Below, in pieces: positions 32,870 through 64,000 of a stretch of DNA of 64,000 nucleotides. The stretch comes from an uncultured Chloroflexia bacterium (GTDB taxonomy: Bacteria; Chloroflexota; Limnocylindria; Limnocylindrales; CSP1-4): contig CAVYIM010000007.1 of the NCBI GenBank assembly GCA_963768655.1, positions 1-64,000 on the forward strand, read 5' to 3'. The notes below the pieces were generated by a model. The model was not told the origin of the DNA. It saw nothing but the letters and a program-made list of their open reading frames with translations, and made no database searches. The stretch's first letter is position 1, and the number at the start of each line of letters is the position of its first letter. Position numbers and translations under genes: made by a program.

Positions 32870-33000
32870 GTGGCTCCCTGCCGGGCCGGCTCGCCTGCGA
32901 GACTACGGCTCGGCAACGGCCATGCGGGGTTGACCCGGGTGCCTCCCGGCCGGCCTGGCGTAGCCCCCTGGGGACTATGCCGCCGGTCCGGGAGGCTGCC

Positions 33001-33006
33001 TATAAT
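33001..33006 (+). promoter_or_regulatory. consensus -10 element
   Basis: TATAAT in GC-rich intergenic DNA about 90 bp before the CpaE-like gene. Confidence 0.5.
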
Positions 33007-33094
33007 CACAGCGTCCTGCGAGCGTCCCGGTCTTTGAGGGCGGCTGTCCGCCACGGTAACTGAATGACCGGGTGCGTCCGTTACAACAGGTGAG

Positions 33095-34300
33095 TTGATG
33101 GCCGTCAGGATCCTAGTAGTCGATGCCGACCCGACCGTCCAGCGAGCTCTCAGTAATGCGCTGACCCAGGCCGGATATCAGCCGATCGCCCTGGGCGACG
33201 GCGCCGAGGCCTTGCGCGTCGCGCGAACGGACCGGCCGGCGCTCGTCCTGATTGCGGCGAACCTGCCGGGCGTCGACGGGTTCACGATCGTCAGCCGGCT
33301 GCGAATGGAGGACGGTCCCTCCACCCATACGCCGGTCATCCTGCTGCTTGCGGAGAACGAAGCCGAGCATCGGGGCAAGGCCCTTCGATCGGGCGCCGAC
33401 GACTACCTGATCAAGCCCTTCCATCCGGCCGAGCTGATGGCCCGGATGCGCAGCCTCTTGTCTCGGTACGCGCCGGCCGACGCGGCGCCTACTCCTGCCC
33501 ATCGCACCGCTCCGGCGGCGATCTCCAGGCGTCGCGAGCCGGCCCGAGTGATCCTGTTCTATGGAGCTAAGGGCGGCGTCGGGACGACGACGATCGCGAT
33601 CAACACAGCCATCGCCCTGCACAAGGAAATGGGCAAGAGGGTCTGCCTGATCGACGCCAATCTGCAGTTCGGCGACCATCGAGTCTTCATGGACCTGGGT
33701 CTGGACAAGATGAGCATCGTGGATCTCGCGACGTCGCCGGGCTTCGATCTGGACCTCATTCGCCAGATTCTGATCAAGCACGAATCCGGAGTCGACTTGC
33801 TGCTCGCACCGCCCTCACCCGAAACTGCAGAGCTGGTCACGTCGGACCATCTGCCCGAGATCATCAACTTGATGATGAACGAGTTCGACTACATCGTGCT
33901 CGACGTGGACAAGCGGCTGGACGAAGTGAATTCGAGGATCATGGACGTCGTCCAGACGATCTACCTCGTGATGACTGCCGACCTCCCGTGTTTGAAGAAC
34001 GTCCGCCTCGTGCTGGAGACGATCGGCCATCTCGGCTATTCCGACGCGAAAGTCAAGCTGATCCTGAACCGTTCAAACGCGTTCACGGGCATCAACGTAA
34101 AGAACGCGGAGAGCGCCCTCAAGCGGCGGATCGATTATCAGATCGTCAATGAGTACCGCGCCGCGATCGGCGCGTTGAACAGCGGCGCTCCCTTCATGTA
34201 TACGAAGTCGGATTCGGCGCTCGGCCGGAACATGCTCGAGTTCGTGAAGGAGATGGACAAGGACCTGACCGAGCATCCGACCGCCAAGGTCGCCCGGTAG
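33095..34300 (+). CDS. receiver domain + MinD/ParA ATPase (CpaE-like), second paralog
   Basis: REC with GADDYLIKPF; AKGGVGTT; DANLQFGD; ALNSGAP. Confidence 0.85.
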   Translation: MMAVRILVVDADPTVQRALSNALTQAGYQPIALGDGAEALRVARTDRPALVLIAANLPGVDGFTIVSRLRMEDGPSTHTPVILLLAENEAEHRGKALRSGADDYLIKPFHPAELMARMRSLLSRYAPADAAPTPAHRTAPAAISRRREPARVILFYGAKGGVGTTTIAINTAIALHKEMGKRVCLIDANLQFGDHRVFMDLGLDKMSIVDLATSPGFDLDLIRQILIKHESGVDLLLAPPSPETAELVTSDHLPEIINLMMNEFDYIVLDVDKRLDEVNSRIMDVVQTIYLVMTADLPCLKNVRLVLETIGHLGYSDAKVKLILNRSNAFTGINVKNAESALKRRIDYQIVNEYRAAIGALNSGAPFMYTKSDSALGRNMLEFVKEMDKDLTEHPTAKVAR

Positions 34301-34370
34301 GTCTCATTCGGAGCCGGCCGCGAGATCGGCGGAGGGGTTCGGCGTGACGCTCGGCGGGTCGGCGTCCAGC

Positions 34371-34416
34371 CAGTGAAGGTCCAGATAAGCCGCAGTTGAG
34401 CCGGCCGGCGTAGCGT
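34371..34416 (+). promoter_or_regulatory. comM promoter: three 11-bp-phased repeats and -10
   Basis: cagtgaag 34371, cagataag 34382, cagttgag 34393, N10, TAGCGT 34411; GTG start 7 nt later. Confidence 0.5.
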
Positions 34417-34423
34417 CGCCGAC

Positions 34424-35539
34424 GTGCTCGCCTCCTTGCTTTCGGCCACTCTCCACGGCCTGGACGGCCGCATCGTTCGGGTCGAGGTCGACGTCGCCCC
34501 GGGTTTGCCCGGCTTCACGATCGTCGGGCTGGCGGACACAGCGCTGCAGGAGGCCCGGGAGCGGGTCCGAGGGGCGATTCGCAACAGCGGCTATGAGTAC
34601 CCGCCGCGGCGCATCACGGTCAACCTCGCCCCGGCCGATCTCCGCAAGGGCGGCGCTTCGCTCGATCTGGCGATCGCCCTCGGCATCATGGTCGGGTCGG
34701 AGCAGGTGAAGGCGACGGGCCGCTGGGCCGTTCTCGGCGAGTTGTCGCTCGGCGGCGACCTGCGCCCGGTGCCCGGTCTGCTGCCCATGGTCGCCGCCCT
34801 GGCGCGCCGGCGCGTGAGGCGCGTGATCGTTCCGGCCGACGGCGCGGCCGAGGCGTCTCTGGCGGACGGTGTCGAGGTCGTGCCGGCGACGACCCTGGCA
34901 GAGGCTGCGACGATAGTGCGGGCGAACCGGCGGGGGCGGCCGCGGGAGACACCGCCACGCGTGGAACTGGCGGACTCGCTCGGCCTCGAGGCCGACGGCG
35001 GAGTGGCGCGGGACGCAGCGGCGACGCAGGCCTCCGCGGATGGCGGCGAGGCACCGGATCTGGCCGAGGTCAGGGGCCAGCTGGAGGCGCGGCGGGCCTT
35101 GGAGATTGCACTCGCGGGCGGCCACTGCCTGCTCATGATCGGCCCGCCCGGATCGGGCAAGACGCTCCTGGCGAGGACGATCCCGGGACTTCTGCCGTCT
35201 CTGGACGACGACGAGTCACGGGTGGCGACGATCATCGCCTCGGTCGCCGGTCCGTCGCCGATAAAGGGGCTGGTCAGGACGCGACCGTTCCGAGCGCCTC
35301 ACCACACCATCTCCTATGCGGCCATGGTCGGCGGCGGCCCCCACCTGTCGCCGGGCGAAGTGACTCTGGCGCACGACGGCATTCTGTTCCTCGACGAGCT
35401 GCCGGAGTTCGACCGGGGAGCCCTGGAGGCGCTGCGCCAGCCACTCGAGGACGGCCAGATTGCGATCGCGCGAGTGGGCCGGGCGGCAGTCTTCCCCTCG
35501 CGGTTCCAGCTCGTGGCGGCCATGAATCCGTGCCCGTGC
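34424..35539 (+). pseudogene. comM: comM (YifB/Mg-chelatase-like AAA+ ATPase), 5' part, interrupted by integration
   Basis: [55 protein letters not shown] then foreign sequence and a stop at 35572. Confidence 0.93.
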
Positions 35540-37112
35540 AAGTGGGAACTACACACGGGAATCTGTAGGTGACGAGGGCCCTGGCGGTCTTCTTGCCGTC
35601 GGCCCCGACGTCGGTGTGGACGACGATCCCCACGAGCAGCCGGACGAGCTCCTGACGCTGCTCGTCGGTCAGTCCCGCGTCCAGCCGGGCGCGAACCTCG
35701 CATAGGAGGTCACGGGCCTCCTGCGGGACGACTTCGCCACGTGGAGCCTGTAGCGCGCCCACGCGGGCTCCGAGGGCGTCATGCTCGTGTGCGATGCGGT
35801 CGAGTTCGTCGTCGAGTTCGCCGTCGGGAAGCCGGCCGCGGATGTTGAGAGACAGGGCCTGCTTGCGCTGCCCCTCCAGCGCTTCGAGAGCCCGCGCGAG
35901 GGTGATCGACTCCGCCTCGGCTATGGCTCCCTGCGCCTCGCGCTCGGCGACTCCATCGAGTTCATCAAGGACATCGCCTGGGTCACGCAGGAACCGCTCC
36001 ACGTCGGCCCAGACGGCTGGCTCGATGGCCTTCACTCGAACCGAGCAGGATGGGCAGCGACCCGCTATCGGCCCTCGCTCGACCAGTTCGCCGCCGCAGC
36101 GGTATCGGCCCCCGGAGCGGTCTGCGGAGCCGACCAGAGTCAGACCGCACATGCCGCAGTGGATCACTCCCCGCAGCAGGTAGACGTGACCGCTGTTCTT
36201 GGCCGACCGGCGGTTGCGGGCCAGGGCCTCCTGAGCGGCTTGCCATAGGGCAGGGGAGACCAGGCCCTCGATCGGGGCAGACGTGATCTCGTGACCGCGA
36301 CGTTCTGTCTTCTCGCCGCGCTGATCGATCCGCCGGCCGTACTGCAGCTCGCCGCGGTAGACCGGGTTGACCACGAGGTTGCGGATCCGGCCTGCCCGCC
36401 ACAGGCCCTGGGTAGCCTTGCCACGGACCCCTCGCCCATCCCGGGCGTAGTGCGTGGGGATACCCAAGGCGTTGTACTCGCTGGCGATGGCCCTGCAGCT
36501 CTGACCTCGCAGAGCGACGCGCTCGTAGACGTCGCGGACGAGGTCGGCAGCCGTCAGGTCGGCCCAGGCAATGGTCTGGTCGGGCACCAGTCGAGCCTTC
36601 TGCTTGAGCCCGTCCACTCGAAAGCCCAACGGGACTATGCCGCCGGTGTAGCGACCCTCTCTGGCAGCCCGCGCCATCCCGTCGGCGGACTTGCGCAGAA
36701 ACTCGACTCGGGCGTGGTCGTCGACGACGGCCTGGATGTCGAAGGCCAGGGGGCTCTGCTCACCCTCGGCGTAGCTGAGCAGGCGGATGCCCAGATACGC
36801 CAGCCTGCGCCGGATAAGGAGGGTCTCCGGGGCGTCTCGGCCGAGGCGATCGGTCTTGTAGACCCACAGCTCGTTGAACAGACCTGCCGCGGCGTCCCGG
36901 AGGAGCCTTCCACCATCGGGGCGATCCGCCATCGCCACGGTGCCCGGGACGCCATCGTCGCGGTAGCTGGCCACCAGCTCGACTTCGGGCTCGCGAAGCA
37001 GCCAGCGATCGAGAACGTCGGTCTGGGTCTTGATCGTCTCGCGCTCGCGCTGGTCCTCGCTGCTGACCCGCTCGTAGGTCGCAACCCGCCGGACCCCTGT
37101 GGCCACGGTCAT
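35274..37112 (-). CDS. large serine recombinase (integrase)
   Basis: YERVSSEDQ catalytic Ser, DRLGRD, recombinase domain, CGMCG...YRC Zn ribbon, coiled coil; last ~88 codons are antisense comM. Confidence 0.95.
35528..35560. mobile_element. att junction (left end) of the element integrated in comM
   Basis: comM similarity ends at the CPC codons (35531-35539); cccgtg/cacggg inverted repeat at 35533-35559. Confidence 0.75.
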
Positions 37113-37315
37113 CGGATACCTCCCAGACCGCGGTCCGGCAGCTGCCTCGGGAGGCCAAGCACCACCCGCAGCGCAGCGACCATCGCCTCCTGGTCAGGCG
37201 TCCATGAACGCTCTATGTCGAGCGGTCTGGCAAGTCGCTGTCTCTTCGGCGGCGCGACGGAGGTAACTGACGGGGCGGAGGCCAGGTCCAGATCCAGATC
37301 ACGCGCATTCGACAT
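37109..37315 (-). CDS. small protein coupled to the integrase (candidate directionality factor)
   Basis: 68 aa, ATGA overlap with the integrase start. Confidence 0.55.
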   Translation of the reverse strand: MSNARDLDLDLASAPSVTSVAPPKRQRLARPLDIERSWTPDQEAMVAALRVVLGLPRQLPDRGLGGIR

Positions 37316-37372
37316 CCTCCGGTTATGGAGCCACGTGGGGCGGGTGTCACGTCAGCGAACGCGTCGACGCTT

Positions 37373-38224
37373 TCAGTGACGTGATTTGGGCCAGTTGCGC
37401 TCGATCGTGCGTCGGTTGGGCTGCCAGCCGGTCTCGGCGCCGAGGGCGGAGCGCAGCCGTTCGAGTGCGGGATGGTCCGCCCCTCCGACCAGGCCCAGCA
37501 AGGAGGTCGGCGTGAGCGACGGGTCCTGCGCGACGAGCAGTGCTAGCGCCTTCCGCAGCCCCAATGTGTCGCGTCGGGTTGCTCGCTTCCGACCGCCGGA
37601 GTAGGGCGGGCGGATGGCTGGAGGCCCGACGCGACGGATGAAGATCTCGGCGCTGGCAGCAAGGTCAGCCTGGAAGCGGGCGCTTCGTCCGTGCCGGCTC
37701 GAATGTGTCGCGAGCTGACCCAGGAGGGCGGCCGAGCGGTAGAAGCCGCCCGGTGGCAAGAGATTGAGATCGTCCGCGAGATCTCCCGCCGGGCGTGTGA
37801 GATCCGGCTCCAGGAGCGCTAGCTGCGCCAGAACGAGCAGGACGCCCACATCAGTTGGGTCCAGGGGTGCGCCAGCTGACTCGATGCGCATGGCCAGTCC
37901 CCGGAGTTGCTCAACAAAGAGCGGCCCGATGCGAGCCGCCTCTTCTCGAACTGCCTCCGACACGAAGTTGAATGGGTTCGGCCACTCGGTGCCGTCAGGC
38001 CAGTAGGGCGTGGCGTCAAGGAAGCGGACCGCGACAAGGGAGACGACGTACTGGTTGGGCAGAGCGAGTGGCTCTACGAGCAACTCCAACGCCGGCCTGG
38101 CGGCCGCCACTTCTCTCGCCACCGCGGGGTGTCCAACCCAGCCAACGGTCACCGCCCGCGCCAGATCGAAAAGCCGCTTCTGCCGGCGATGATCCGGATT
38201 GCGGGGGTCGTATCCGCCAGTCAT
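37373..38224 (-). CDS. hypothetical protein, possible DNA-binding regulator (start may be 38479)
   Basis: Open frame with basic C-terminus (GGRKR...RRTIERNW); co-oriented upstream of the integrase. Confidence 0.5.
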   Translation of the reverse strand: MTGGYDPRNPDHRRQKRLFDLARAVTVGWVGHPAVAREVAAARPALELLVEPLALPNQYVVSLVAVRFLDATPYWPDGTEWPNPFNFVSEAVREEAARIGPLFVEQLRGLAMRIESAGAPLDPTDVGVLLVLAQLALLEPDLTRPAGDLADDLNLLPPGGFYRSAALLGQLATHSSRHGRSARFQADLAASAEIFIRRVGPPAIRPPYSGGRKRATRRDTLGLRKALALLVAQDPSLTPTSLLGLVGGADHPALERLRSALGAETGWQPNRRTIERNWPKSRH

Positions 38225-38514
38225 TCCCCGTCCCACTGCTGTCGTGCCATCGCGCTTACGCGCCTCAGCGGGGCCGGCCAGTCGCCGCCGCAGTGCTTGG
38301 CGGGATTCCAGACACGGTGAATCTACGCCACCGATGTGACCAAAACGGGCGTCGCCGGGCCAAGTCGAACGGAAGACAACAACCCGCGCCGGGTGCGGAC
38401 TGACAACCGGGATCAGGGGTAGGGCGGTCGGGACGCCTGGGGCAGCCGCCTCACCGGCTCGCACACGCTCGTCCGGCATCGGCCCGGTCACAGAGCGGAG
38501 CCCGACCCGGCCCG

Positions 38515-38561
38515 ACGTTAGCAAGCGCCACTTATCCGGGGCTTATCTGCGCCTTATCATC
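38515..38561 (-). promoter_or_regulatory. three GATAAG repeats at 11-bp period and -10 TAACGT
   Basis: CTTATC on + strand at 38531, 38542, 38553; N10; TAACGT at 38520-38515. Confidence 0.6.
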
Positions 38562-38676
38562 GCGGCCCTAGATTGACGGCCAAACGGCCGCTCTTCCACC
38601 CGGGGTGGTCGCCTTCTCCACAAGCCCCCGCTGTCTTCCCCCTCAGGCGGCGGGGGCTTCCCCTTTGTCGCGGCCC

Positions 38677-39087
38677 TCATCGGACGGGCCGCAGGTGACG
38701 GTAGCGGTCAGGGTCGGACGTCTTCGGAGGCTCGGCCACTGGCGGGAGCCAGCGGCGATCCTGACGGCCCTTGGGAGTGATGCCGTAGGTGTCCGCCCAC
38801 ATGCGGTACTCAGACGCACGAGCGAAGTCGCCCCGCTCCATGGCATCGTAGAGATAGACCACGCAGCGCAGCCCGGGCACGTCCCACGGCCCCCAGTGAG
38901 CGGCCCACCAGGAGCCGAACCACGCCTCCCAGGCCTCCACCGACGACGGCAGGAGGCCATCGGGCGGTTGCGGAACGGGGCCATGTTGCCAGCCCATGGC
39001 GGTGGTCACCTGCCAGTCGCCACGGGCGAGGGGGCGCCTTCCTCGACGGGCTCCGGGCGCCTTGGGAGCTGGACCGCTACCGCCCAC
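38677..39087 (-). CDS. phage terminase small subunit-like protein
   Basis: N-terminal GSGPAPK, Trp-rich core, C-terminal SEYRMWADTYGITPKGR resembling actinophage-type TerS. Confidence 0.65.
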   Translation of the reverse strand: MGGSGPAPKAPGARRGRRPLARGDWQVTTAMGWQHGPVPQPPDGLLPSSVEAWEAWFGSWWAAHWGPWDVPGLRCVVYLYDAMERGDFARASEYRMWADTYGITPKGRQDRRWLPPVAEPPKTSDPDRYRHLRPVR

Positions 39088-39212
39088 GGGAAAGCCCCAG
39101 ACTGCTACACACGGCGAGGGTCCTGTGCCGGGGTGCTGCGGGTCGGGCGCCTCCTCCGCAGCGACCCTCCCCCCGGTGGACCGCGCTCGCCCTGCCCCAG
39201 ACCGGGCCGCGC

Positions 39213-40148
39213 TCAGACACCGATCGCATCGGCCACCTCGCGCCAGGCTCGGTCCTGCTGGCCCTCGAGTCGCCTCAGGTAGACGCTCGTGACCGCCAGG
39301 CTCGAGTGGTCCAAGAACTGGCTCACCGACTCGATCGACTCGCCAGCGTCACGGCGCAATTTCGCAGCCGTGTGCCGCAAGATATGTACCCCGGTCGGCG
39401 CCATGCCGGCGAGCCGCAGGTAACGGCGGAAGCGGGCATAGAACGTCCCGCTCGTGACTCCCTGCGGCCGCGCAGCGGCCTGCCAGAGCGACTCGTCTGG
39501 CGCCATCGTCGCGAGCTCCTTGCCCGCGTCAGCCAGGGTTGCGCAGATGGCCTCGTAGGCGGGCCGGGGGAGTTCCCGTCGACCGCGCTTGCCGCCTTTG
39601 CCCCGGTAGGAGTAGAAGACGGTCTCACCCTCGAGGCTGAGGTCTCCTGCCCGGAGGCCGATCACCTCCGCTCGCCGGCGGCCGGTCAGGACCAGGGTCA
39701 GCAGGATCGCCCGGTCTCGTCGTCCCGCAACGGTATCGGGCACTACCGCGAGGAGCCGCCGCACCTCGTCCGCTCCGCATCCACGGGCCACCGACTGGAC
39801 GGCTCTCGGTCGTTCGATCGCATCGGTCGGGTTGGAGAGGACCAGACCCATCCGGATCAGGAAGCGGTAGAAGGAGGACAGGCAGGCGATCCGGGCTCCG
39901 ACCGTCGTAGCCGACGGTGTCCGCCCGGACTTGCCGATGCCGTGGACGAAGGCGAGGACGTCGGCTGGCTTGACCCGATCCGGCGTCTTGCCCAGATCCG
40001 CGAAGAACGGCCACAGCATCCGGCTGTAGGACTCGACCGTTCGTCGGGAGCCTGAGCGGTTGCCTTTCTCGACCAGGAAGCCATAGAGCGCCTGGTCCCA
40101 GGCGGAGGGGTCTCCGCTGGCCAGGGCGGGGAGTGGTTGAGCGGTCAT
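39213..40148 (-). CDS. tyrosine recombinase (XerC/D-like)
   Basis: SAM-like N-domain; TGRRRAE, GKGGK, HILRH, LDHSS...TSVY. Confidence 0.92.
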   Translation of the reverse strand: MTAQPLPALASGDPSAWDQALYGFLVEKGNRSGSRRTVESYSRMLWPFFADLGKTPDRVKPADVLAFVHGIGKSGRTPSATTVGARIACLSSFYRFLIRMGLVLSNPTDAIERPRAVQSVARGCGADEVRRLLAVVPDTVAGRRDRAILLTLVLTGRRRAEVIGLRAGDLSLEGETVFYSYRGKGGKRGRRELPRPAYEAICATLADAGKELATMAPDESLWQAAARPQGVTSGTFYARFRRYLRLAGMAPTGVHILRHTAAKLRRDAGESIESVSQFLDHSSLAVTSVYLRRLEGQQDRAWREVADAIGV

Positions 40149-40258
40149 GGTGGGCGTCCTCGGGTACGGGCTGGACGCCCACATCAGTTACTCAGCCGGC
40201 CCCAGATAGCAACACCATGGCCAAATGGTGCCCATGGACGCCGGACCGAGTCGGGGCG

Positions 40259-40573
40259 TCAGCGATCGCCGGGCGGGTCCTGCTCAGGCGCCAGCGGGTT
40301 GATCGATTGGTTCCCAATCTGGCGCGCCCCTCCGAACAGGCTGAACTCACGCACCCGCAGCCGCCCGAGCCGGGGCACTCTTGGGGCGTCACTCCGCTCC
40401 ACGACATTTGCGAATGGTTCAACCTCCTCGATCCCGTGTTCTAGGGAGAGCGAGTAGATGTCGCTCGGCGGGTCGACGACGATGATGCCGCGCTCGAGCA
40501 AATCCTCTGCGGCGTCGGCGGAGAGTTCATAGGTAACGCCGTCGTAGACGAGCAGGCTCCTGCCGATCGCCAT
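40259..40573 (-). CDS. hypothetical protein
   Basis: GGAGG RBS, coding-like composition. Confidence 0.5.
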   Translation of the reverse strand: MAIGRSLLVYDGVTYELSADAAEDLLERGIIVVDPPSDIYSLSLEHGIEEVEPFANVVERSDAPRVPRLGRLRVREFSLFGGARQIGNQSINPLAPEQDPPGDR

Positions 40574-45584: not shown

Positions 45585-47390
45585 TTAGGAGACCCAGTCG
45601 GGCGCTTCGCTCGCCGCCTTCCTCCATAGGGCGTAATTCGTCTCGCGAGTGGGCGCGTCCATCCTGGGCTTCCACTCGCGATCCTTCTGCCAGTTGGCCC
45701 GAAGGTCCTCGACGGTCTTCCAGAAGCCGACCGCCAGACCGGCTGCGTAGGCGGCGCCGAGGGCGGTCGTCTCGGCGACTTTGGGCCGGATGACCGGCAT
45801 GCCCAGGACGTCGGCCTGGAACTGCATCAGGGTCTCGTTGAACACCATGCCGCCGTCAACCTTGAGGGCCTTGAGCGGAACGCCGGAGTCGGCGTTCATC
45901 GCGTCGAGAACCTCGCGGGTCTGCCAGGCCGTCGCCTCGAGAACCGCCCGGGCGATGTGGCCCTTGTTCACGTAGCGGGTGAGGCCGGCGAAGACGCCGC
46001 GGGCATCGCCCTTCCAGTGGGGCGCGACCAGGCCGGAAAAGGCCGGCACGAAGTACACGCCGCCGTTGTCATCGACGGTCTTGGCCAGATCCTCGACCTC
46101 GGCGGTGATCCTGATCACTCCCAGGTTGTCGCGCAGCCACTGGACGAGGGCGCCGGTGATCGCGATCGAGCCCTCGAGGGCGTAGACCGCGGGCTGGTCG
46201 CCGATCTTGTAGCCGAGCGTCGTCAGCAGACCGCTCTTGGACGGCACCGCCTTCGTGCCCGTGTTGAGGAGCATGAAGCAGCCGGTGCCGTAGGTGTTCT
46301 TCGCCTCGCCGGGCGAGAAGCATGTCTGGCCGAAGAGGGCGGCCTGCTGGTCGCCTAGGTCACCGGCAACGGGCACGCCAGCGAGATCGCCAACGGCCTT
46401 GCCATAGACGGCGCTCGACGGCTTGACCGCCGGCAGCATGGAGCGCGGGATGGTCATGAGCTTTAGGATCTCGGGATCCCAGTCGAGGGTCGCAAGATTC
46501 ATGAGCATCGTCCGGCTGGCGTTACTCACGTCGGTGACGTGAACGCCGCCGTTGACGCCGCCGGTGAGATTCCAGATGCACCACGTGTCGATGTTCCCGA
46601 ACAGCAGGTCGCCTGCCTCTGCCTTGGCGCGGGCGCCGGCGACATTGTCGAGAATCCACTTGACCTTCGGACCGGAGAAGTAAGTTGCGAGCGGCAGGCC
46701 GACCTTGGCCCGCAGGCGGTCCTGGCCGCCCTGCTTGGCAAACTCATTGATGATCACGTCCGTCCGGGTGTCCTGCCAGACGATCGCGTTGTAGACCGGC
46801 TTGCCGGTCTTGCGATCCCAGACGACCGTCGTCTCGCGCTGGTTGGTGACTCCCACCGCAGCGAGGTCCGAGGCGGCGATGCCCGCCTTCTTGAGCGCGC
46901 CACGGATGACCTCGCCGCAGCGGGTCCAGATCTCCATCGCGTCGTGCTCGACCCAGCCCGGCTTGGGGTAGATCTGTTCGTGCTCTTTCTGATCGATCCC
47001 GACCACGCCACCGCTGTGGTCGAAGATCATGAAACGTGTGCTTGTGGTGCCCTGGTCCAGGGCGCCGACATATTGAGCGGAGGAAACCGCACCTAGTAGT
47101 CGCTGGAGCTGTTCGATCGCGGGTCGGGGGAGGTCGCCCACCTCAAGGTAGTGCTTGGCGAGACGACGGGCTTCAGGCTCGTTGCCGCCCTTCCGATAGA
47201 GCGCGACTGCGCTTATTGCCACGACGCCACGCGTGCGTGGGCGGTCAGACGGGACTCTGTCGAACGCAGCGGCTTCCCAGTGGGCCGCCTCAAGGTACGC
47301 CGCCGACGCAGCCTGTTCCTCGCCGCGCGCTAGAAGATCGTTGCCACGAATCATCAGTGCCTCGGCCCGACGGTGAAGATCAAGAGACAC
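45585..47390 (-). CDS. glpK: glycerol kinase with an N-terminal ~100-aa helical (TPR-like) domain
   Basis: [50 protein letters not shown] all intact. Confidence 0.9.
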
Positions 47391-50037: not shown

Positions 50038-53000
50038 GTGCGTACGTCAGGTTCGGCATTGATGAATCGAACGATGCGGCACGGCAGGCTCGCTGCTGTA
50101 GTCACCGTCGCAATCCTGGTCGCAGGTCTGTCGCCCGTGTTGCCGGTCATAGCTGCCACAAGGCCCGGACCTCTCCCGCCCGTCCTGACGCCTAGGATCG
50201 ATCCTTCGGCCGCGCAGAGCCTGGCCCGCTCGACCGCTCCCACGGCCGAGACGTCGAGGCCGACGGCCGGCGCACCTGATGCCGCCGGTTCCGGCATGGC
50301 CCCGACCGAAGTCCCGTCTCTGCGCACGGCGTATAGCGACACCTACGACAACCACGACGGCACGTTCACTGTCCACGTGAGCCCCGATCCTATCAACTAC
50401 CAACCGACGGCTGGCGCGGCCTGGACGCCCATCGATCTGTCCTTCGCGCCGATCTCGGGCGGCAGCGGCCGAGTCAGAGCCGGGATGACGCCGGTCCCGG
50501 TCGAGGTCGGGGCGCCCGGCGACGCGGCTGGCTTTGTGAGTGTCGACACCGGCGAGGGCGTGATCAGCCTCCGGCTCGTTTCTGGGGCCAAGCAGGGCAG
50601 CTCGGCATCGGAGCCTGTGGCCGCAGCGGGCGGCGCCAAGGTTGCTGGCCTGCTCCCAGGCGTTGATCTACAGGTCAGCGCCAATCCCTCTGGCTTCAAC
50701 ACGTTCCTCGCTTTCGCCTCTAGACCCGCTTCCCCCTCGTTCACCTTTGAGCTGGACTCACCCGGGCTGACCCCTGCTCTGCAACCCGACGGCTCAATCA
50801 GTTTCCTAGACAAGAGCGGCATGACGGTTGCCACGATGCCCCATCCCTATGCCGAGGATTCGACGCCCGACGATCAGCGCGGCAGCGGGCAGATGACGGT
50901 CGACGTCGTCTATTCGCTCGCTACCCAGGGCGCCACCACCCTGCTCACGGTGAGCGTCGATCCGACCTGGCTCGCGAGCGCGGTCTATCCGGTCTATGTC
51001 GACCCGTCGGTCAATGTGAGTACCACCGCCAACATGAAGGACACCTTCGTCGACGCGATGTACCCGACAGAGAACTGGGAAGGCTTCAAACGCTCGGACT
51101 CCCCCTACTACTACGAGATGCTTCTCGGAGAAGACCCCGACAACTCGACGCAAGTCTGTAAGGACCTGCTCAGCTTTACGATGCCGGCCGCGGTTGCAAG
51201 CTCGACAATCGACTCGGCCACGCTCCAGATCTTCCCCTACTGGCAGTACGAGCACTACAGCGCGGTCACGACTTGGGTCGACCAGGTGACATCGAGCTGG
51301 AGCGCGGGGAGCGTAGATTGGAACAACCAGCCGAGCATCACCACGACCGGCGCCGTGACGGCGACGACAGTCCAGGGCACGACCGGATCATTCGACATCA
51401 CGAGTTTCGTGCAGGGCTGGGTCGACACCCCTTCGACTAACTACGGCATCCAGCTGAACGAGAACGGCAACGGCGGCACCTATTGGAAGCGCGTGATCTC
51501 GTCTGAGCAGACCGGCGCCAACATACCCACGCTAGCGATCACCTACAGCAAGCCTACGGCGACCGTGTCCGCACCGACCGGTAACGTGTGGACCAACAGC
51601 CGCACCCTGACCTGGGCCTACACCTCGACCGACGGCCCGGCCCAAGCCGCCTACGACGTCCAGGTTGCGACCGACTCTGGCTTTACCAACCTCGTCGTCA
51701 ACACGGGCAGCCAATCGGGCGCTGCCTCCAGCTACGCGATCCCATCGGGCACCACCCTGACCAACGGCACGACCTACTACTGGCGAGTCGAGGTTTCCGA
51801 TGGCCATATCTGGTCGGCCTGGACCGCCGCGGCTCAGTTCCGCTGGGACGCCACGGCGCCAGCCTGGAAGGGTTTCACCGCGCCCGCTGCGCAGGTCGAC
51901 CAGTCGGCGGCCTCCTACACTTTCGCCTGGAATGCTGCGACCGATTCCCCCGGGTCCGGGGTCGCTGGCTATAGCCTGCAGGTCCAAACGGCTGCGATCT
52001 CGTCTACAGCCAACGTGTGCTCCACGACATGGTCGAATTCTCGGTACGGTCCAGCCCCTAACCACCACCAGCTACGCGGTTTCCTCCATGACTGGCGCCA
52101 CGTGCTATCGAGTCGGCGTATTCGCCACGGACGCAGTCGGCAACCCAAGTAGTACGTACAGCTCCAGCCCGGTCCTGGTCGACACGACCTCGGCCAACGC
52201 CCCGACGGTCACCGACAACTGCACTTCGCTCGGCTCCTGCTATCGGGTCGGCAACACGATCTACTTCCGGCCTGCAGCAGCCGGCACGCTCAGCCTGACC
52301 TCGACCGGCACGGACAACGAGTCTGGCATCGCCTCCTCGACCTTCGGCGCGCTCTCGGCTCCGACCGGCTGGACCTATACCTCGGGCACGGTCACGGGCA
52401 ACCCGGCCTCTAAGAGCGTCACCTGGTCGAGCACGGCCGGCAGCACGACGCTCCAGATAACCACCACCAACAATGCCGGACTCGTTTCGCCCGCCACGAC
52501 CATCACCTTCACACCGGACTCAACGATCACAGGTTCCTTCACCACGCCCGGCAGCAGCCTCGTCGTTCAATCGGGCACGAGCTACTCGGTCGCCTGGACT
52601 GAGACAGAGACTGGATCTGGCGTCGCGAGCCGCTCGCTGCAGCGTCAGAAGGGGACCGTCGCCACGGCCGGCACCTGTACCGGAGTCACCTTCGCCAACG
52701 ACGGTAGCCCGTCCACATCTGCCTCACCGGTCAACGCCACCGGTCTGGTCAGCGGCAACTGCTATCGCTGGGCTCTGACCCTCACCGACAACGTCGGCAA
52801 CATTGCGACCCTAACGTCGGGTTCGGTCCTGGTCGACACGACCTCGGCCAACGCCCCGACGGTCACCGACAACTGCACTTCGCTCGGCTCCTGCTATCGG
52901 GTCGGCAACACGATCTACTTCCGGCCTGCAGCAGCCGGCACGCTCAGCCTGACCTCGACCGGCACGGACAACGAGTCTGGCATCGCCTCCTCGACCTTCG

Positions 53001-56000
53001 GCGCGCTCTCGGCTCCGACCGGCTGGACCTATACCTCGGGCACGGTCACGGGCAACCCGGCCTCTAAGAGCGTCACCTGGTCGAGCACGGCCGGCAGCAC
53101 GACGCTCCAGATAACCACCACCAACAATGCCGGACTCGTTTCGCCCGCCACGACCATCACCTTCACACCGGACTCAACGATCACAGGTTCCTTCACCACG
53201 CCCGGCAGCAGCCTCGTCGTTCAATCGGGCACGAGCTACTCGGTCGCCTGGACTGAGACAGAGACTGGATCTGGCGTCGCGAGCCGCTCGCTGCAGCGTC
53301 AGAAGGGACCGTCGCCACGGCCGGCACCTGTACCGGAGTCACCTTCGCCAACGACGGTAGCCCGATCACCAGCGTCTCCCCGGCAACGTTCAGCGCTCCG
53401 GTGGCCGGCTACTGCTACCAATGGGTGCTCACGCTTACGGACACCGTCGGCAACGTCGGAACCAGCACGTCAGGCATGGTCATCCGCGACACCAGCAGCG
53501 CCCTCGGGCAACAGAGCCAGCTGAGCCTTGAATTCCTGGGCTCTGGGATCGGGCGACGGGGCGGACGTCAACGTCGTCACTGGCGACCTGGTTGTGAGCC
53601 ATTCGATCGTGAGCCTGCCCATCCGCGGCAGCTCGGTCTCGCTCGATCTCACCTACAACAGCCAGGATCTCGCGAACGTCGGTCTCGGCACCGGCTGGCG
53701 CGTAAACGTGCAGCGGCGGCTCACGCTCAACCCCGACGGCAGCGTGACCCTCGTCGACTCCGACGGGGCGCGATACCTGTTCACGAACCCCGTCACCAAC
53801 GGCACCGTCACGACCTACGCGCGGCCGGCGGCTCTGTTCGCGACCCTGGTCGAGGACACGAGCCAGCAGAGCCAGTTCACCCTGACCTACAAGGACCTCT
53901 CCCTTGACCGCTTCCTCATCTCCGGGTCCGACGCGCTCCTGGTCCGCCAGCAGGATCGCTTCGGCAATGGCGTGACGATCGCTTACAACAGCGGAACCGA
54001 GGACATCTCGACCGTTACTGACGACACGGCCCGAGTCATCAACTTCACCTGGACCACCACTACCTCGCCCCATCAGCTCGCCTCGATCACCGACTGGGCC
54101 TGGATCAACAGCTCGGGCGTCGTCCAGACGAGCGCCACCGGCTCTCGCCGGACCTATCGCTTCTTCTACGACGGCAGCGGCGCCCTGATCGGCTGGGCCG
54201 ACCCGCTCAACGCGTCAGGCACCTGCCCGACCGGCGGGAGCCATCTGACCTGCCTGACCTACAGCGGCGGCCAGCTGACCGGCATTGCCAAGACGCAGAC
54301 CTACACCACCTTCAACGGCAGCTCGCTGGGCGCTGCCACCCGCGTGGCTTCGACGAGCTTCGCCTACTCTAGCGGCGACGTGGCCGGCGTCACCGACGCC
54401 CTGACCAACCAGACTACCTTCGACCGCTCGACACCGGGCCAGACCACCGTTCATCGGCCGGCCAGCGGCGCGGTCACATATGCCTTCGCGGCAGCCGACC
54501 CGTACGGCCGTGTCACCTCGGTCTCGCGCAGCCTGTCGGGCACGCCGATCGTGCAGACGACGGTCTGGGACGCCGCCTTCCCGACGCTGCCCGACTCGGT
54601 CACCGACAACTCGACCGGAGCTCTGAGCACGCCCTCGCGGACAGTGACGTATACGTACTTCGCAGGTTCGATGGGCAACCTGGCGCGGGAGGTCGAGCCT
54701 CTGACCGCGACGACCGACCGGCGGACCGATTACACGTACAACGCCAACAACGACGTGACCCAAGAGATCGTCAGCCAGGATGGCTCGACGACCCTTCAGA
54801 CCACCACTCGATACTGCTACGACAGCGGCTGCTCGCTCAGCGGCAGCGGCCTGTCGATACTCAGCGAAATCGACGACTACGTCTCGGGTAGCTCTGCCAC
54901 AAACGACACCAACGTCCGGACCGACTACGCCTACGACGCCTACGGGCAGAAGACCCGGACCACGCGCCACAACCGTGATGCAGCAGGTGCTGACCTCGAC
55001 GACCGCATCGACGCGTCGGTCTACAATTCGTATGGCGACGTGACGGCGTCGATCACCAACTATGCCGACGGCCAGGTGACCGGCGGCACCGACGTGACTC
55101 CCGATGCCAGCGGCGCCCGGACAGACCTGACGACCACGTACACCTTCGACACCGCCGGCAACGAGGTCAGCGTTGCCGACCCGCGCCGCGCGATCGAACT
55201 CGCTCTCGGATCTGCGGGTGCCGACGACTATGTCACCCGCTCCACCTTCGATGCCCTCAACGAGAACCTGAGTCAGACCACCCCGACGACTCCCGGGGTC
55301 AGCGGCGTCCCCAGAAGAGCTCGTCGAGCGTCTACGACGAATTCGGCTCGGTCCGAGCTGCAACCGACCTGAACGGTATCGTCACCGGCACAGCCTTCGA
55401 TGCCGGTGGCAACTCGACCGCTACCTATGAGATCGACCCCTCGCCTCTCGGCGCCTCACAGACGTCGTCTTCTACCTATGACGCCGCCGGTCGCCTGGCC
55501 ACCAGCAAGGACGCGCGGCAGGTCGCCAACGGCGCCCTAGGTCACACCGCCTACGGATATGACGATCTCGGGCAGCAAGTCTCCGTCACCGACGCCGCGG
55601 GGTCCAGCCCCGACATCTCAAGCGAGACGACAACCACTTACGATGCCCTCGGGCGCAAGACGGCAGACGACTACTCAGTCGGCGGTACGTCCTATACCTA
55701 CGATTTGGGAGGCCGAGCGCTCACGACCGACGACGGCCTGTCCTGCTCGACGAGCACGTACGACTACCAGGACCGGACCACGACCACTACCAGCGGCCTG
55801 AACACCGGGACCTGCACCGATGGCGGTGACGGCTCCACGACAACCAACACCTACGACGGCCTGGGTCGGCTCACGCTGGCCCAGATCACTGCGGGCGTGA
55901 ACGTCGGAGACAAGACAACCAACGATGTCTACGACTCCGCGGGCGACAAGCTCTCCGACTCGACCACCAAGTCCGGTGTGGTGGCGACCGCCACCACGCA

Positions 56001-58339: not shown

Positions 58340-58444
58340 AGCCAAGCGCAAACCGGCGGAAGTGTCGGAGTTGTCCGGTCGGGTGATCGCCTTGGCGCGC
58401 TCGCCAGATGCACGCGTAGGTCTCGGGTCATTGACTTCAGCGCG

Positions 58445-59361
58445 GAGGATGTCCCGATCGTCGTGGAATTTCAGTGAGGGTCGGGTCTCCAGGTTGCTGA
58501 TCATATCGGTTGGTTGGTAGCGCTCGCCTCGCTTTCGATGTGGAGCTCGCGCTTCAGCGCAGCGGCAAGAATGGGCAGCTCCCGATAGCCACAGACTCGG
58601 CGGAACTGAGCCTCTGCGGCGAGCATCCCAGCGGCGGCCCAGCGCAGCGCCATCTCGCCCGACTCCCAGTTCTTCACCCGGCGGGCGTGCGTCTTGACGA
58701 TCTCGATCATCGATTCCATCGGGTTGGTCGACTCGAGCGTCCTCCAGAGCGAGCCGCTGATGCCCAGACGCGTCAGGGTGAGCGTGTCGTCGAGCCCCTC
58801 GCGCAGCGACGCGGCGGCTCCCGGACGGCTGTGGGCCAGACTGCGGGCCAGGGAGTGGAGGGCCGCCTTCGCCCTGTCCGGATCTCGCTCGGCCCAGGCG
58901 GCCCGAAGCCGGCGCTGGGCGAGCGGTCGTTCGATCTCGGGCAGGTGCTCTAGAACGTTGCGCTCTTTGTGGCGATGGCAGCGATGGATCGCCACGCCTT
59001 TGCCCAAGAAGGTGCGGATGGCCGAACCGATGGCGGAGCCGCCGTCGACGACGAAGAGGACGCCTGCGCTTGTGTCCAGACCGCGATCGCGCAAGTCCGC
59101 CAGGAGCGCGTTGACCACCGCGCTGTTCTCGGTCGTGCCCTCGACCACGCCGAGGGGCACCTTGTGGCCGGCGGCGTCGATCCCGAGCGCGCCTACGAGC
59201 AGGTGATCGCCCAGGCGAAAGCCATCGAGCATGAGCACGAGGTAGCGGCGGTCGTCGAGTCTGCGCCCGAGCAGCTCAGCCAGGCGCTCTGCCGTGGCGG
59301 CGAGGAAGCGGCGGCTGACGGCGGCGTGGCTGGTCGAGACGGCGGCCTTACGCGAACCCAC
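58445..59361 (-). mobile_element. IS256-family transposase, 5'-truncated, with right end
   Basis: SHAAVSRRF, LMLDG, VVDG, RCHRHKERN, STNPMES; IR-like end aaattccacgacgatcgggacatcctc at 58445. Confidence 0.88.
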
Positions 59362-63502: not shown

Positions 63503-64000
63503 TCAGCCGGCAGTCGGCACTCCGATCCAGAAGCGTGAGCCGTCATCGGTGGCGAGAAGCCCTGTAGGGCCCAGAGCCACATAGGGGTTATCCCACCACG
63601 GCAGGTCGCCGATCTGCTTGAGGGTGACCAGCTTGAGCTTGTCATCCTGGGCAATCAGGGTCAGCGAAGAGTTATCTGATGCTGCCCAGCCCCACCCAAG
63701 TCCGCAGCTTCGGCCAGCCAATATGGGCTGTAAGAACAGCTGCGGGAATCCCTTGACGAGATTCCAGGTCTTCCCATCGGTGGAGACCCAGGAAGCCAGG
63801 AAGCCCGACCCTGTATCGGGGGACCACTCCTGCGCCACTAGCATGTGGTCGTCTATCCGATAGACGTTCATGCTGATGGTTGACGGACCGGCCCTGGTTC
63901 CGCTCAAGTCCTCGGGGCTCCAGGTCGTGCCGTCGGGAGACCACCACAGTGCGACCTGATAGATGGACGTGTCCGGCTCTACGACGCCACAGCCGAGAAA
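63503..64000 (-). CDS. hypothetical protein with Asp-box (BNR-like) repeats, partial
   Basis: WWSPDGTTW and WVSTDGKTW; continues beyond the window. Confidence 0.6.
   Translation of the reverse strand, partial: FLGCGVVEPDTSIYQVALWWSPDGTTWSPEDLSGTRAGPSTISMNVYRIDDHMLVAQEWSPDTGSGFLASWVSTDGKTWNLVKGFPQLFLQPILAGRSCGLGWGWAASDNSSLTLIAQDDKLKLVTLKQIGDLPWWDNPYVALGPTGLLATDDGSRFWIGVPTAG

Follow-up and report, generated by a model that had tools for sequence, protein, structure and literature searches.

The window analysed here comprises 64,000 nucleotides (positions 1 to 64,000 of contig CAVYIM010000007.1, in the following C7) from the genome of an uncultured Chloroflexota bacterium of the order Limnocylindrales (G000; 3,368,982 bp, 68-69% G+C, 88.6% complete). 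It contains the competence gene comM, split by a mobile island, and two promoters of closely similar layout, one in front of comM and one inside the island. The comM promoter lies on the forward strand and consists of the boxes cagTGAAG, cagATAAG, and cagTTGAG at 34371, 34382, and 34393 (34371..34400, 11-bp period) and a −10 hexamer TAGCGT (34411..34416) positioned 10 nt past the third box. The GTG start codon of comM at 34424 follows 7 nt past TAGCGT, which implies a leaderless comM mRNA. On the reverse strand of the island, the boxes atgATAAG, cagATAAG, and cggATAAG (38531..38561, with CTTATC at 38553, 38542, and 38531) have the same 11-bp period, and a −10 hexamer TAACGT (38515..38520) is located 10 nt past the proximal box. 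The island promoter points into an open reading frame (ORF) without family assignment, followed by an ORF of 68 amino acids (aa) and the gene for a 612-aa large serine recombinase. Both sites are composed of three 11-bp-phased (c)AG(A/G)TAAG-type boxes, a spacer of 10 nt, and a TAnnnT −10 element. Box sequences, period, spacer, and hexamers are exactly as described in the original prediction for this DNA, and its view that the comM and island promoters are of one architecture holds, as both match the same consensus layout.

The motif is rare. ATAAG occurs 348 times and CAGATAAG 22 times on both strands of the 3,368,982-bp genome. The window has two occurrences of ATAAG-N6-ATAAG, and both belong to the island promoter (none expected from 100 dinucleotide-preserving shuffles), and the composite pattern, with up to two mismatches allowed, recovers exactly the comM and island sites there (0.00 expected). 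Listing of all CAGATAAG and ATAAG pairs genome-wide revealed many loci with the same arrangement. The genome-wide distance from ATAAG to TAnnnT peaks at 10 nt (five cases) and 21 nt (nine cases), with zero to two cases for every other spacing from 0 to 29. A weight matrix derived from 19 aligned sites, with the reversed genome as control (control maximum 17.8), identified 28 sites that score above 24, nine of which were not seeds. At 14 of these 28 sites an ORF of 50 aa or more has its start codon 5-7 nt past the −10 element, i.e., in leaderless position, which supports the hexamers as real −10 elements. With a leave-out matrix built without the three C7 sites (reversed-genome control maximum 20.5), the island promoter ranks 7th in the genome (38.7), the comM promoter 8th (38.4), and the promoter of a second island copy 19th (29.7). 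A chance resemblance of two G+C-poor patches, for which nothing but the small size of the motif speaks, has next to no probability, as it is refuted by these statistics (rarity, shuffles, spacing, and matrix ranks) and by the conservation described below. The data support that the two sites are members of one promoter class of the SARP type, named after a family of Streptomyces activators, rather than a pair shared by comM and the island alone.

The ORFs downstream of the sites were scanned with Pfam and NCBIfam, together with family searches of the genome. Besides comM, the box is located upstream of comEA (HHH_3, SLBB) and then comEC (Competence), of a ComF/GntX-like gene for a phosphoribosyltransferase-fold protein, of a paralog of the single-stranded DNA-binding protein gene (ssbB-like), and of a small ORF followed by radC, an operon seen with the box in this genome only. 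It further precedes the genes for a 1165-aa protein with Lamin-tail (LTD) and OB-fold domains and a weak ExeM/NucH nuclease match, and for a 1139-aa regulator with AAA, TPR, Trans_reg_C, and BTAD domains. The box is thereby a common promoter motif upstream of genes for DNA uptake and processing, as is characteristic of a competence regulon. Among the candidate targets suggested for a genome scan, comM, comEC (via comEA), and an ssb paralog carry it, and recA does not: the highest-scoring site in its vicinity reaches 12.7, less than the control maximum, at ~340 nt from the RecA match. A DNA-damage regulon was rejected, as no site near recA exceeds the control, and the proposed induction by DNA damage is left without support. 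The PafBC promoters named in the original prediction have a RecA-independent motif to which the WYL-domain protein PafBC binds, and this motif is unlike the ATAAG repeats.

Conservation was analyzed in up to 30 orthologous loci per gene from 50 other genomes of the genus, with 160-200 nt of upstream sequence scored. Upstream of comM, 20 of 22 loci reach at least 20.5 with the leave-out matrix, the remaining two score 19.8 and 19.9, and TAnnnT is placed 6-7 nt before the GTG in all 22. Scores of at least 20 were obtained for comEA at 28 of 30 loci (one miss is cut at a contig end, the other scores 18.4), with comEA identity across the scored loci down to 56%, and likewise for the comF-like gene (24/29), the regulator gene (21/26), and the ssbB-like paralog (27/30). 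The motif upstream of comM orthologs, on which the original prediction hinged, is thus conserved in the genus, and it is equally found upstream of related elements (24 of 29 copies of the leader described below). Because dprA directly follows comM in all four relatives checked, the comM promoter probably serves dprA too. The motif and its genome- and genus-wide distribution are observed directly; the set of genes under it is a predicted competence regulon. Members of a second family of the order, with ~1.1-Mb genomes, gave no ATAAG matrix match upstream of comM (0/6). Inspected by eye, comM (6/6) and comEA (3/3) loci of this family keep the geometry with GTACG-type boxes (L028-L033, L280-L283), in the order GTACG, N6, (G/A)TA(C/T)(C/T), N10, a CAnnAT-type hexamer, 6 nt, and the start codon. 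The same genomes encode a homolog of the SARP domain only (32-36% identity). The retained geometry with altered boxes and leaderless starts suggests that the box and the DNA-binding domain diverged together.

The 1139-aa regulator, P0001, has Pfam AAA/TPR, Trans_reg_C (926-983), and BTAD (1026-1135) matches. Residues 57-617 of the protein resemble MalT (NCBIfam E 1e-63, short of the equivalog cut-off), and its C-terminal ~205 residues (~931-1135) can be aligned with AfsR from Streptomyces over the SARP domain (8hvr, E 6e-8). Its own gene is preceded by two boxes and a CAnnAT hexamer, with the start codon 6-7 nt further. By eye, two boxes and a leaderless ATG are present in 15 of 15 regulator homologs of other genera (34-47% identity), loci of which only two score at least 20. 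As described in passages of PMC10936776, SARP targets are direct repeats spaced by 11 or 22 bp, the 3′ repeat being separated from the −10 element by 8 bp; two adjacent SARP protomers occupy two 11-bp repeats overlapping the −35 region and contact the first 8 bp of each. The repeat period of 11 bp at both sites and across the regulon agrees with this spacing. The distance from ATAAG to the −10 element is exactly 10 nt, or 8-9 nt if the unit is ATAAGC(c/g), depending on how the repeat is delimited; the box unit comprises a conserved (c)AGATAAGC and three variable bases, and the proximal unit ends 6-7 nt before the −10 element. The OmpR/SARP-type winged-helix geometry named in the original prediction is supported by the repeat period and, within 1-2 bp, by the distance to the −10 element, and the genome encodes a box-bearing SARP-domain gene. 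P0001, in the following the STAND-SARP protein, is likely the autoregulated activator of the boxes.

The explanation that we consider probable is a single activator-dependent promoter class, which serves a regulon of the genus with a DNA-uptake core and a STAND-SARP activator and is also carried by mobile modules. Two or three 11-bp repeats of the consensus cAG(A/G)TAAGC would replace the −35 element, with the proximal repeat ~10 nt before TAnnnT. The conserved core of the regulon would comprise comEA-comEC, the comF-like gene, comM-dprA, the ssbB-like paralog, the radC operon, and the STAND-SARP gene itself. The STAND-SARP protein would bind the repeats side by side and recruit RNA polymerase as AfsR does, the regulon would be activated for the uptake of DNA, and the island's recombinase operon would be co-induced with the competence genes. 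One of these modules is the island in comM, which entered at TGCCCGTGC and forms two tandem copies here.

Several points weigh against this explanation. For comEA, comF, the regulator, and ssbB, the seeds of the scoring matrix included the respective sites of this genome, and genomes of one genus are not independent. No RNA run was found for positions 33000-40500 of the window. Half of the regulon in this genome consists of genes that are not linked to DNA uptake or have no assigned function, among them five XRE-type genes, a pair of CoA-transferase genes, one for a periplasmic binding protein together with a methyltransferase gene, the operon of an acetate kinase, toxin-antitoxin genes (BrnT, MazE-like, and PIN), and a dozen ORFs without family; the regulon signal may therefore be broader than competence. 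No pilus genes turned up under the box, in scans that did not include a systematic pilus search. The boxes were assigned to P0001 because of geometry and autoregulation only, and the genome encodes one further clear BTAD protein as well as many OmpR-type regulators. The repeats might accordingly be read by another direct-repeat binder, either an OmpR/PhoB-type response regulator or the second BTAD protein, in response to a general stress or growth-phase signal, with the STAND-SARP gene merely a target. An 11-bp phase and replacement of the −35 element fit PhoB/OmpR-type sites as well, a second BTAD protein is at hand, and the many non-competence genes with a box would be accounted for. We nevertheless regard such a binder as decidedly improbable, given that the core conserved throughout the genus is the DNA-uptake set, that the STAND-SARP gene keeps its two boxes and leaderless start down to 34-47% identity, and that the repeat period and, within 1-2 bp, the −10 distance agree with SARP sites.

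The 5′ part of comM (34424..35539, forward strand; Pfam ChlI and Mg_chelatase, the latter over profile positions 1-163 of 207) encodes residues 1-372 of a 382-aa frame. This open frame continues to 35572 in island DNA, and homology to an intact comM ortholog stops at 35539. Comparison of attB, attL, and attR in relatives places the attL core TGCCCGTGC at 35531..35539, within the comM codons N-P-C-P-C-G. The 9-bp core is flanked in the element by the inverted repeats GGTGTAGTT and GAACTACAC, as expected for the attP of a serine integrase. Island copy E1 extends from 35540 past the window end at 64000 to C7:69148 (33.6 kb), where its right end abuts the left end of the related tandem copy E2 in an attP-like junction (C7:69098-69190). 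E2 and E1 are 69% identical in the serine recombinase protein (73% in its DNA), 85% in the promoter-leader region, and 82% in a tyrosine recombinase protein (78% in its DNA). The combination of Resolvase, Recombinase, and zinc-ribbon domains with attP inverted repeats around a short core is that of a large serine integrase element.

Relative to two related genomes, C7:35539-112115 (76.6 kb) replaces ~2.1 kb that contain the 3′ part of comM and dprA. No attR was found in this assembly, and searches throughout the assembly recovered neither the comM 3′ part nor dprA. The genome is 88.6% complete, yet this gap sits inside one contiguous contig. As attR, the comM 3′ part, and dprA are absent, excision cannot rebuild comM in this assembly; of the two junctions expected for a gene-splitting element with regulated excision (active lysogeny type), this genome does not have both. 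Five relatives have a comM frame that ends at the same place, and in all five the 3′ half, beginning at residue 373, is present on a different contig. Both comM halves are free of stops and frameshifts in four of them, and G011 has a stop or frameshift in both. Restoration of comM by excision, as originally envisaged, is thus precluded here and possible in relatives that keep both halves.

The operon under the island promoter belongs to a module that was compared across 26 loci and has the order Xer-like recombinase, hairpins/terminator, box promoter, ~85-nt leader, variable ORF(s), orf68, and large serine recombinase. The serine recombinase (35274..37112, reverse strand, 612 aa; Pfam Resolvase, Recombinase, and Zn_ribbon_recom, with weak NCBIfam CcrB/XisF matches) is homologous to the E2 copy up to residue 527. 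Its frame crosses attL, such that the last ~85 codons (35274-35539, reverse strand) are read from the antisense strand of comM, and the E2 recombinase obtains its tail from the neighbouring element. Since the tail is read across attL, the C-terminus would differ between the integrated and excised states. The recombinase mRNA is complementary to the terminal part of the truncated comM. Related serine recombinases are 53-72% identical at the six loci whose 1.5-kb flank reaches them. Overlapping the recombinase start, orf68 (37109..37315, reverse strand) is 65-83% identical beside the recombinase in seven related loci and has no family match in NCBIfam; by inference only, it is a candidate directionality factor. 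The variable first ORF (37373..38191, reverse strand; ~272 aa from the ATG at 38191) is replaced by another gene in E2. It was previously taken for a regulator, an assignment that finds no backing in Pfam or NCBIfam, where it has no match, or in Atlas clusters, of which only unnamed ones were obtained.

The Xer-like tyrosine recombinase (39213..40184, reverse strand; Pfam Phage_integrase and SAM_1, Xer-type NCBIfam models below cut-offs) is the best-conserved gene of the module, mostly 82-92% identical (59% at one locus); at 23 of 26 loci it lies just upstream of the promoter. Between it and the promoter are two G+C-rich hairpins (38581..38664), probably a terminator, with a sub-threshold 6C-like match that shows both stems. 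The hairpins follow a 136-aa ORF (38677..39087, reverse strand) with a weak small-terminase-like, helix-turn-helix match (Pfam Terminase_7, 27.4 bits at a cut-off of 27), which is also present in one related locus (L065).

The leader of ~85 nt (38426..38508, reverse strand) begins at the predicted transcription start and was aligned in 29 copies, the other 28 being located in loci L065-L093. It is more conserved than the surrounding genes; the segment from the second box to 38426 recurs with 77-91% identity in 25 of 51 genus genomes, with up to nine matches per genome. In 24 of the 29 copies, the leader has a box promoter that scores at least 20.5 at constant spacing, and three of the five exceptions are second leader copies that follow the first within one locus by a few hundred bases. 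Such a promoterless second copy lies 0.4-1.2 kb downstream in L090, L074, and L082; the one in L090 is situated past a small antisense zinc-ribbon ORF. A coding function of the leader was rejected, given single-base indels and loss of the ATG in 6 of 29 copies. No Rfam family matches its strand, and neither the window nor the 54 kb that follow yielded an additional copy with a covariance model. RNAalifold with default scoring returned 10 invariant pairs only. With RIBOSUM scoring, the leader folds into a rod of 30 pairs (89.7% of cells paired), of which five change on both sides; this value was reached by 13 of 500 shuffles, i.e., covariation is weak. The fold is suggestive of a structured leader RNA but is not proof of it. 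The Xer-like recombinase together with the 85-nt element was also considered as an integron, a reading rejected for now: integron-integrase models score 45 against a cut-off of 265 bits, and a second element copy occurs in only 3 of 26 loci and not in this genome.

According to the original prediction, the element copied the activator site of the gene that it disrupts. Over 51 nt, the comM site shares 57% identity with the island site, which ranks 18th among 171 promoter pairs (mean 49 ± 7%), and there is no extended homology. The box is found on ~28 promoters in this genome and genus-wide at the comEA-comEC, comF, ssbB-like, and regulator genes, and the promoter-leader module is likewise held by genomes with intact comM (G001, G010, G012, G017). 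The promoter thus belongs to the element family and not to the insertion into comM. The island looks wired into the host competence programme as a whole, rather than furnished with a copy of comM's site alone. Of the original central idea we retain the shared host cue, as a prediction, and have dropped the copied site.

Several observations would suit an island that did copy the site and is excised by the comM-inducing signal, rebuilding comM and reconnecting dprA on demand, as in Listeria comK. The recombinase operon has a top-scoring box promoter; the core within NPCPCG is precise, such that recombination of attL with attR would restore the frame; the 3′ half starts exactly at residue 373 in all five relatives, four of which lack stops in both halves; the insertion also separates dprA from the box promoter; and a precedent is provided by the Listeria comK prophage (PMC7397523). 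Nevertheless, we consider this course of events unlikely. The site identity bears no sign of copying, the box is regulon-wide and is carried by the module in genomes with intact comM, and in the present genome the tandem pair lies between attL and an attP-like junction, with attR and the genes to be restored missing. The decay of both halves in G011 and the candidate status of orf68 as directionality factor further speak against it.

A second competence gene looks like an integration site as well. The ssbB-like region at C6:104501-112154 contains one copy that diverges past residue ~91 and three partial copies (residues 1-53, 1-52, and 50-92), two of which have their own box promoter, and fragments of the 1-53 type are present in five relatives. 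The island could be selfish, targeting comM, and ssbB in relatives, to cripple transformation that might delete it, with the competence activator as a cue for its own genes (escape, transfer, or the variable first ORF) and not for comM repair. Insertion of mobile genetic elements into comM and ssbB is widespread and is interpreted in this way in sections of PMC12378983. The lost or decayed comM of two among six genomes with the insertion (G000 and G011), the fragmented and partly duplicated ssbB-like gene here with partial copies in five relatives, and the occurrence of the module away from comM are all compatible with selfishness. Open comM halves in four of five relatives point the other way, as they fit continued use, although they fit recent insertion too, and transfer has left no sign in the form of conjugation or capsid genes among the ORFs scanned in the window. 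We regard a selfish island of this kind as possible, if somewhat unlikely.

Under the promoter class that we favor, the outcome of co-induction could be either excision that rebuilds comM-dprA or selfish escape, and competence-coupled excision is a possibility. The selfish outcome is somewhat favored by fragmentation of the ssbB-like gene and by the two carriers out of six with decayed or deleted comM, excision or recent insertion by the four with open comM halves. It is tempting to join all elements into one scheme, in which the STAND-SARP protein is the competence master activator of Limnocylindria, islands in competence genes (comM, probably ssbB) share its box, competence excises the island and rebuilds comM-dprA, and the switch is gated by the ~85-nt structured leader RNA. 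As a whole we consider this scheme improbable.

The remainder of E1 carries cargo that includes an FGGY kinase, a GDSL lipase, Rhs/DUF6531 proteins, an IS256-type transposase, and, past the window, a ParB-methylase. The gene of the FGGY carbohydrate kinase (45616-47072) is 95% identical to C5:527039-528495. A ~905-bp repeat with a Mutator-family (IS256-type) transposase (58444-59348) recurs with 99-100% identity at 13 other places (C3, C4, C5, C7, C9), and a 670-bp direct repeat of 93% identity (52170-53492) is situated between the gene for a 704-aa carbohydrate-binding protein and the DUF6531/Rhs genes. Directly upstream of the comM promoter, a TadZ-like gene (33095-34300, forward strand) encodes a receiver domain fused to a MinD/CpaE-type ATPase; its arrangement is that of Tad pilus loci, and it has no box in front. 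Elsewhere in the genome, the five XRE genes with box promoters (C5:164378-165037, C6:48660-51227, C5:207748-208560, C3:885234-886091, and C4:679223-680095) are leaderless and encode proteins of 219-855 aa with an N-terminal XRE helix-turn-helix; most have a CATCCT-type −10 element. Downstream of a box-controlled XRE gene is a class II ribonucleotide reductase gene with an intein (LAGLIDADG; C3:879798-884237).

To our knowledge, nothing has been described on competence and its control in Chloroflexota, and we know of no organism of this lineage that is transformable. The box that links comEA-comEC, comF, comM-dprA, and the ssbB-like gene leads to the prediction that abundant uncultured bacteria of soil and freshwater are transformable, names a candidate competence master regulator of the SARP type, which was so far tied to antibiotic clusters, and offers a handle for reading competence in metatranscriptomes. 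Mobile elements that disrupt competence genes and listen to the predicted competence activator bear on the debate whether such insertions are sabotage or switch. If the joint scheme of STAND-SARP activation and excision were true, the island would constitute a reversible, host-programmed gene switch.

The closest known counterparts of the promoters are the SARP promoters of Streptomyces (the afs box of AfsR, ActII-ORF4, DnrI), which share direct repeats one helical turn apart over the −35 region. Sections of PMC10936776 add conservation of the first ~8 bp of the 11-bp unit as a further common feature, and a short fixed spacing of ~8 bp between proximal repeat and −10 element, to which the boxes here come within 1-2 bp, depending on where the repeat is taken to end. 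P0001 resembles AfsR as a SARP-domain protein with NOD and TPR modules whose C-terminus aligns to AfsR, but its domain order is reversed, with the MalT-like ATPase and TPR first and the SARP domain last. The promoters differ from those of Streptomyces in their occurrence in Chloroflexota, the frequent presence of three repeats, and many leaderless targets, and their targets are DNA-uptake genes and mobile elements instead of antibiotic clusters.

The regulon is comparable to those under known competence boxes (CRP-S/Sxy, ComK box, ComX cin-box), as one motif is found at comEA/comEC, comF, comM, dprA, ssbB, and radC, a list typical of competence regulons; the type of activator is different here. 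Such competence genes also make up the target list of a Legionella small RNA in sections of PMC12378983.

The island shares with elements of regulated excision (Listeria phi10403S in comK, Bacillus skin/SPbeta, and the Anabaena fdxN element with XisF) a large serine recombinase inside an element that interrupts a coding frame at a precise core. XisF of Anabaena is among the best weak NCBIfam matches of the recombinase, and, as in gene-splitting elements, the recombinase operon has a promoter from the host programme in which the split gene is needed. Different from these elements, excision of the island is a prediction, the far junction and the 3′ part of the gene are gone in this genome, and the promoter belongs to the module family wherever it is inserted. 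AbaR islands of Acinetobacter integrate by Tn7-like transposition. They have in common with the present island comM as target and a presumed effect on transformation, as discussed in sections of PMC12378983, in contrast to which a serine integrase and a 9-bp core in the NPCPCG codons are found here.

Among the papers listed in literature searches, there was no prior link of BTAD or SARP proteins with com genes and none that joined Limnocylindria with comEC or 'natural competence'. SARP-type activation, competence boxes, insertion of mobile genetic elements into comM, and regulated excision are each already known. New, as far as our searches show, are the way in which these are combined, their occurrence in this phylum, a regulator with reversed domain order, and a mobile module that carries the box of its host.

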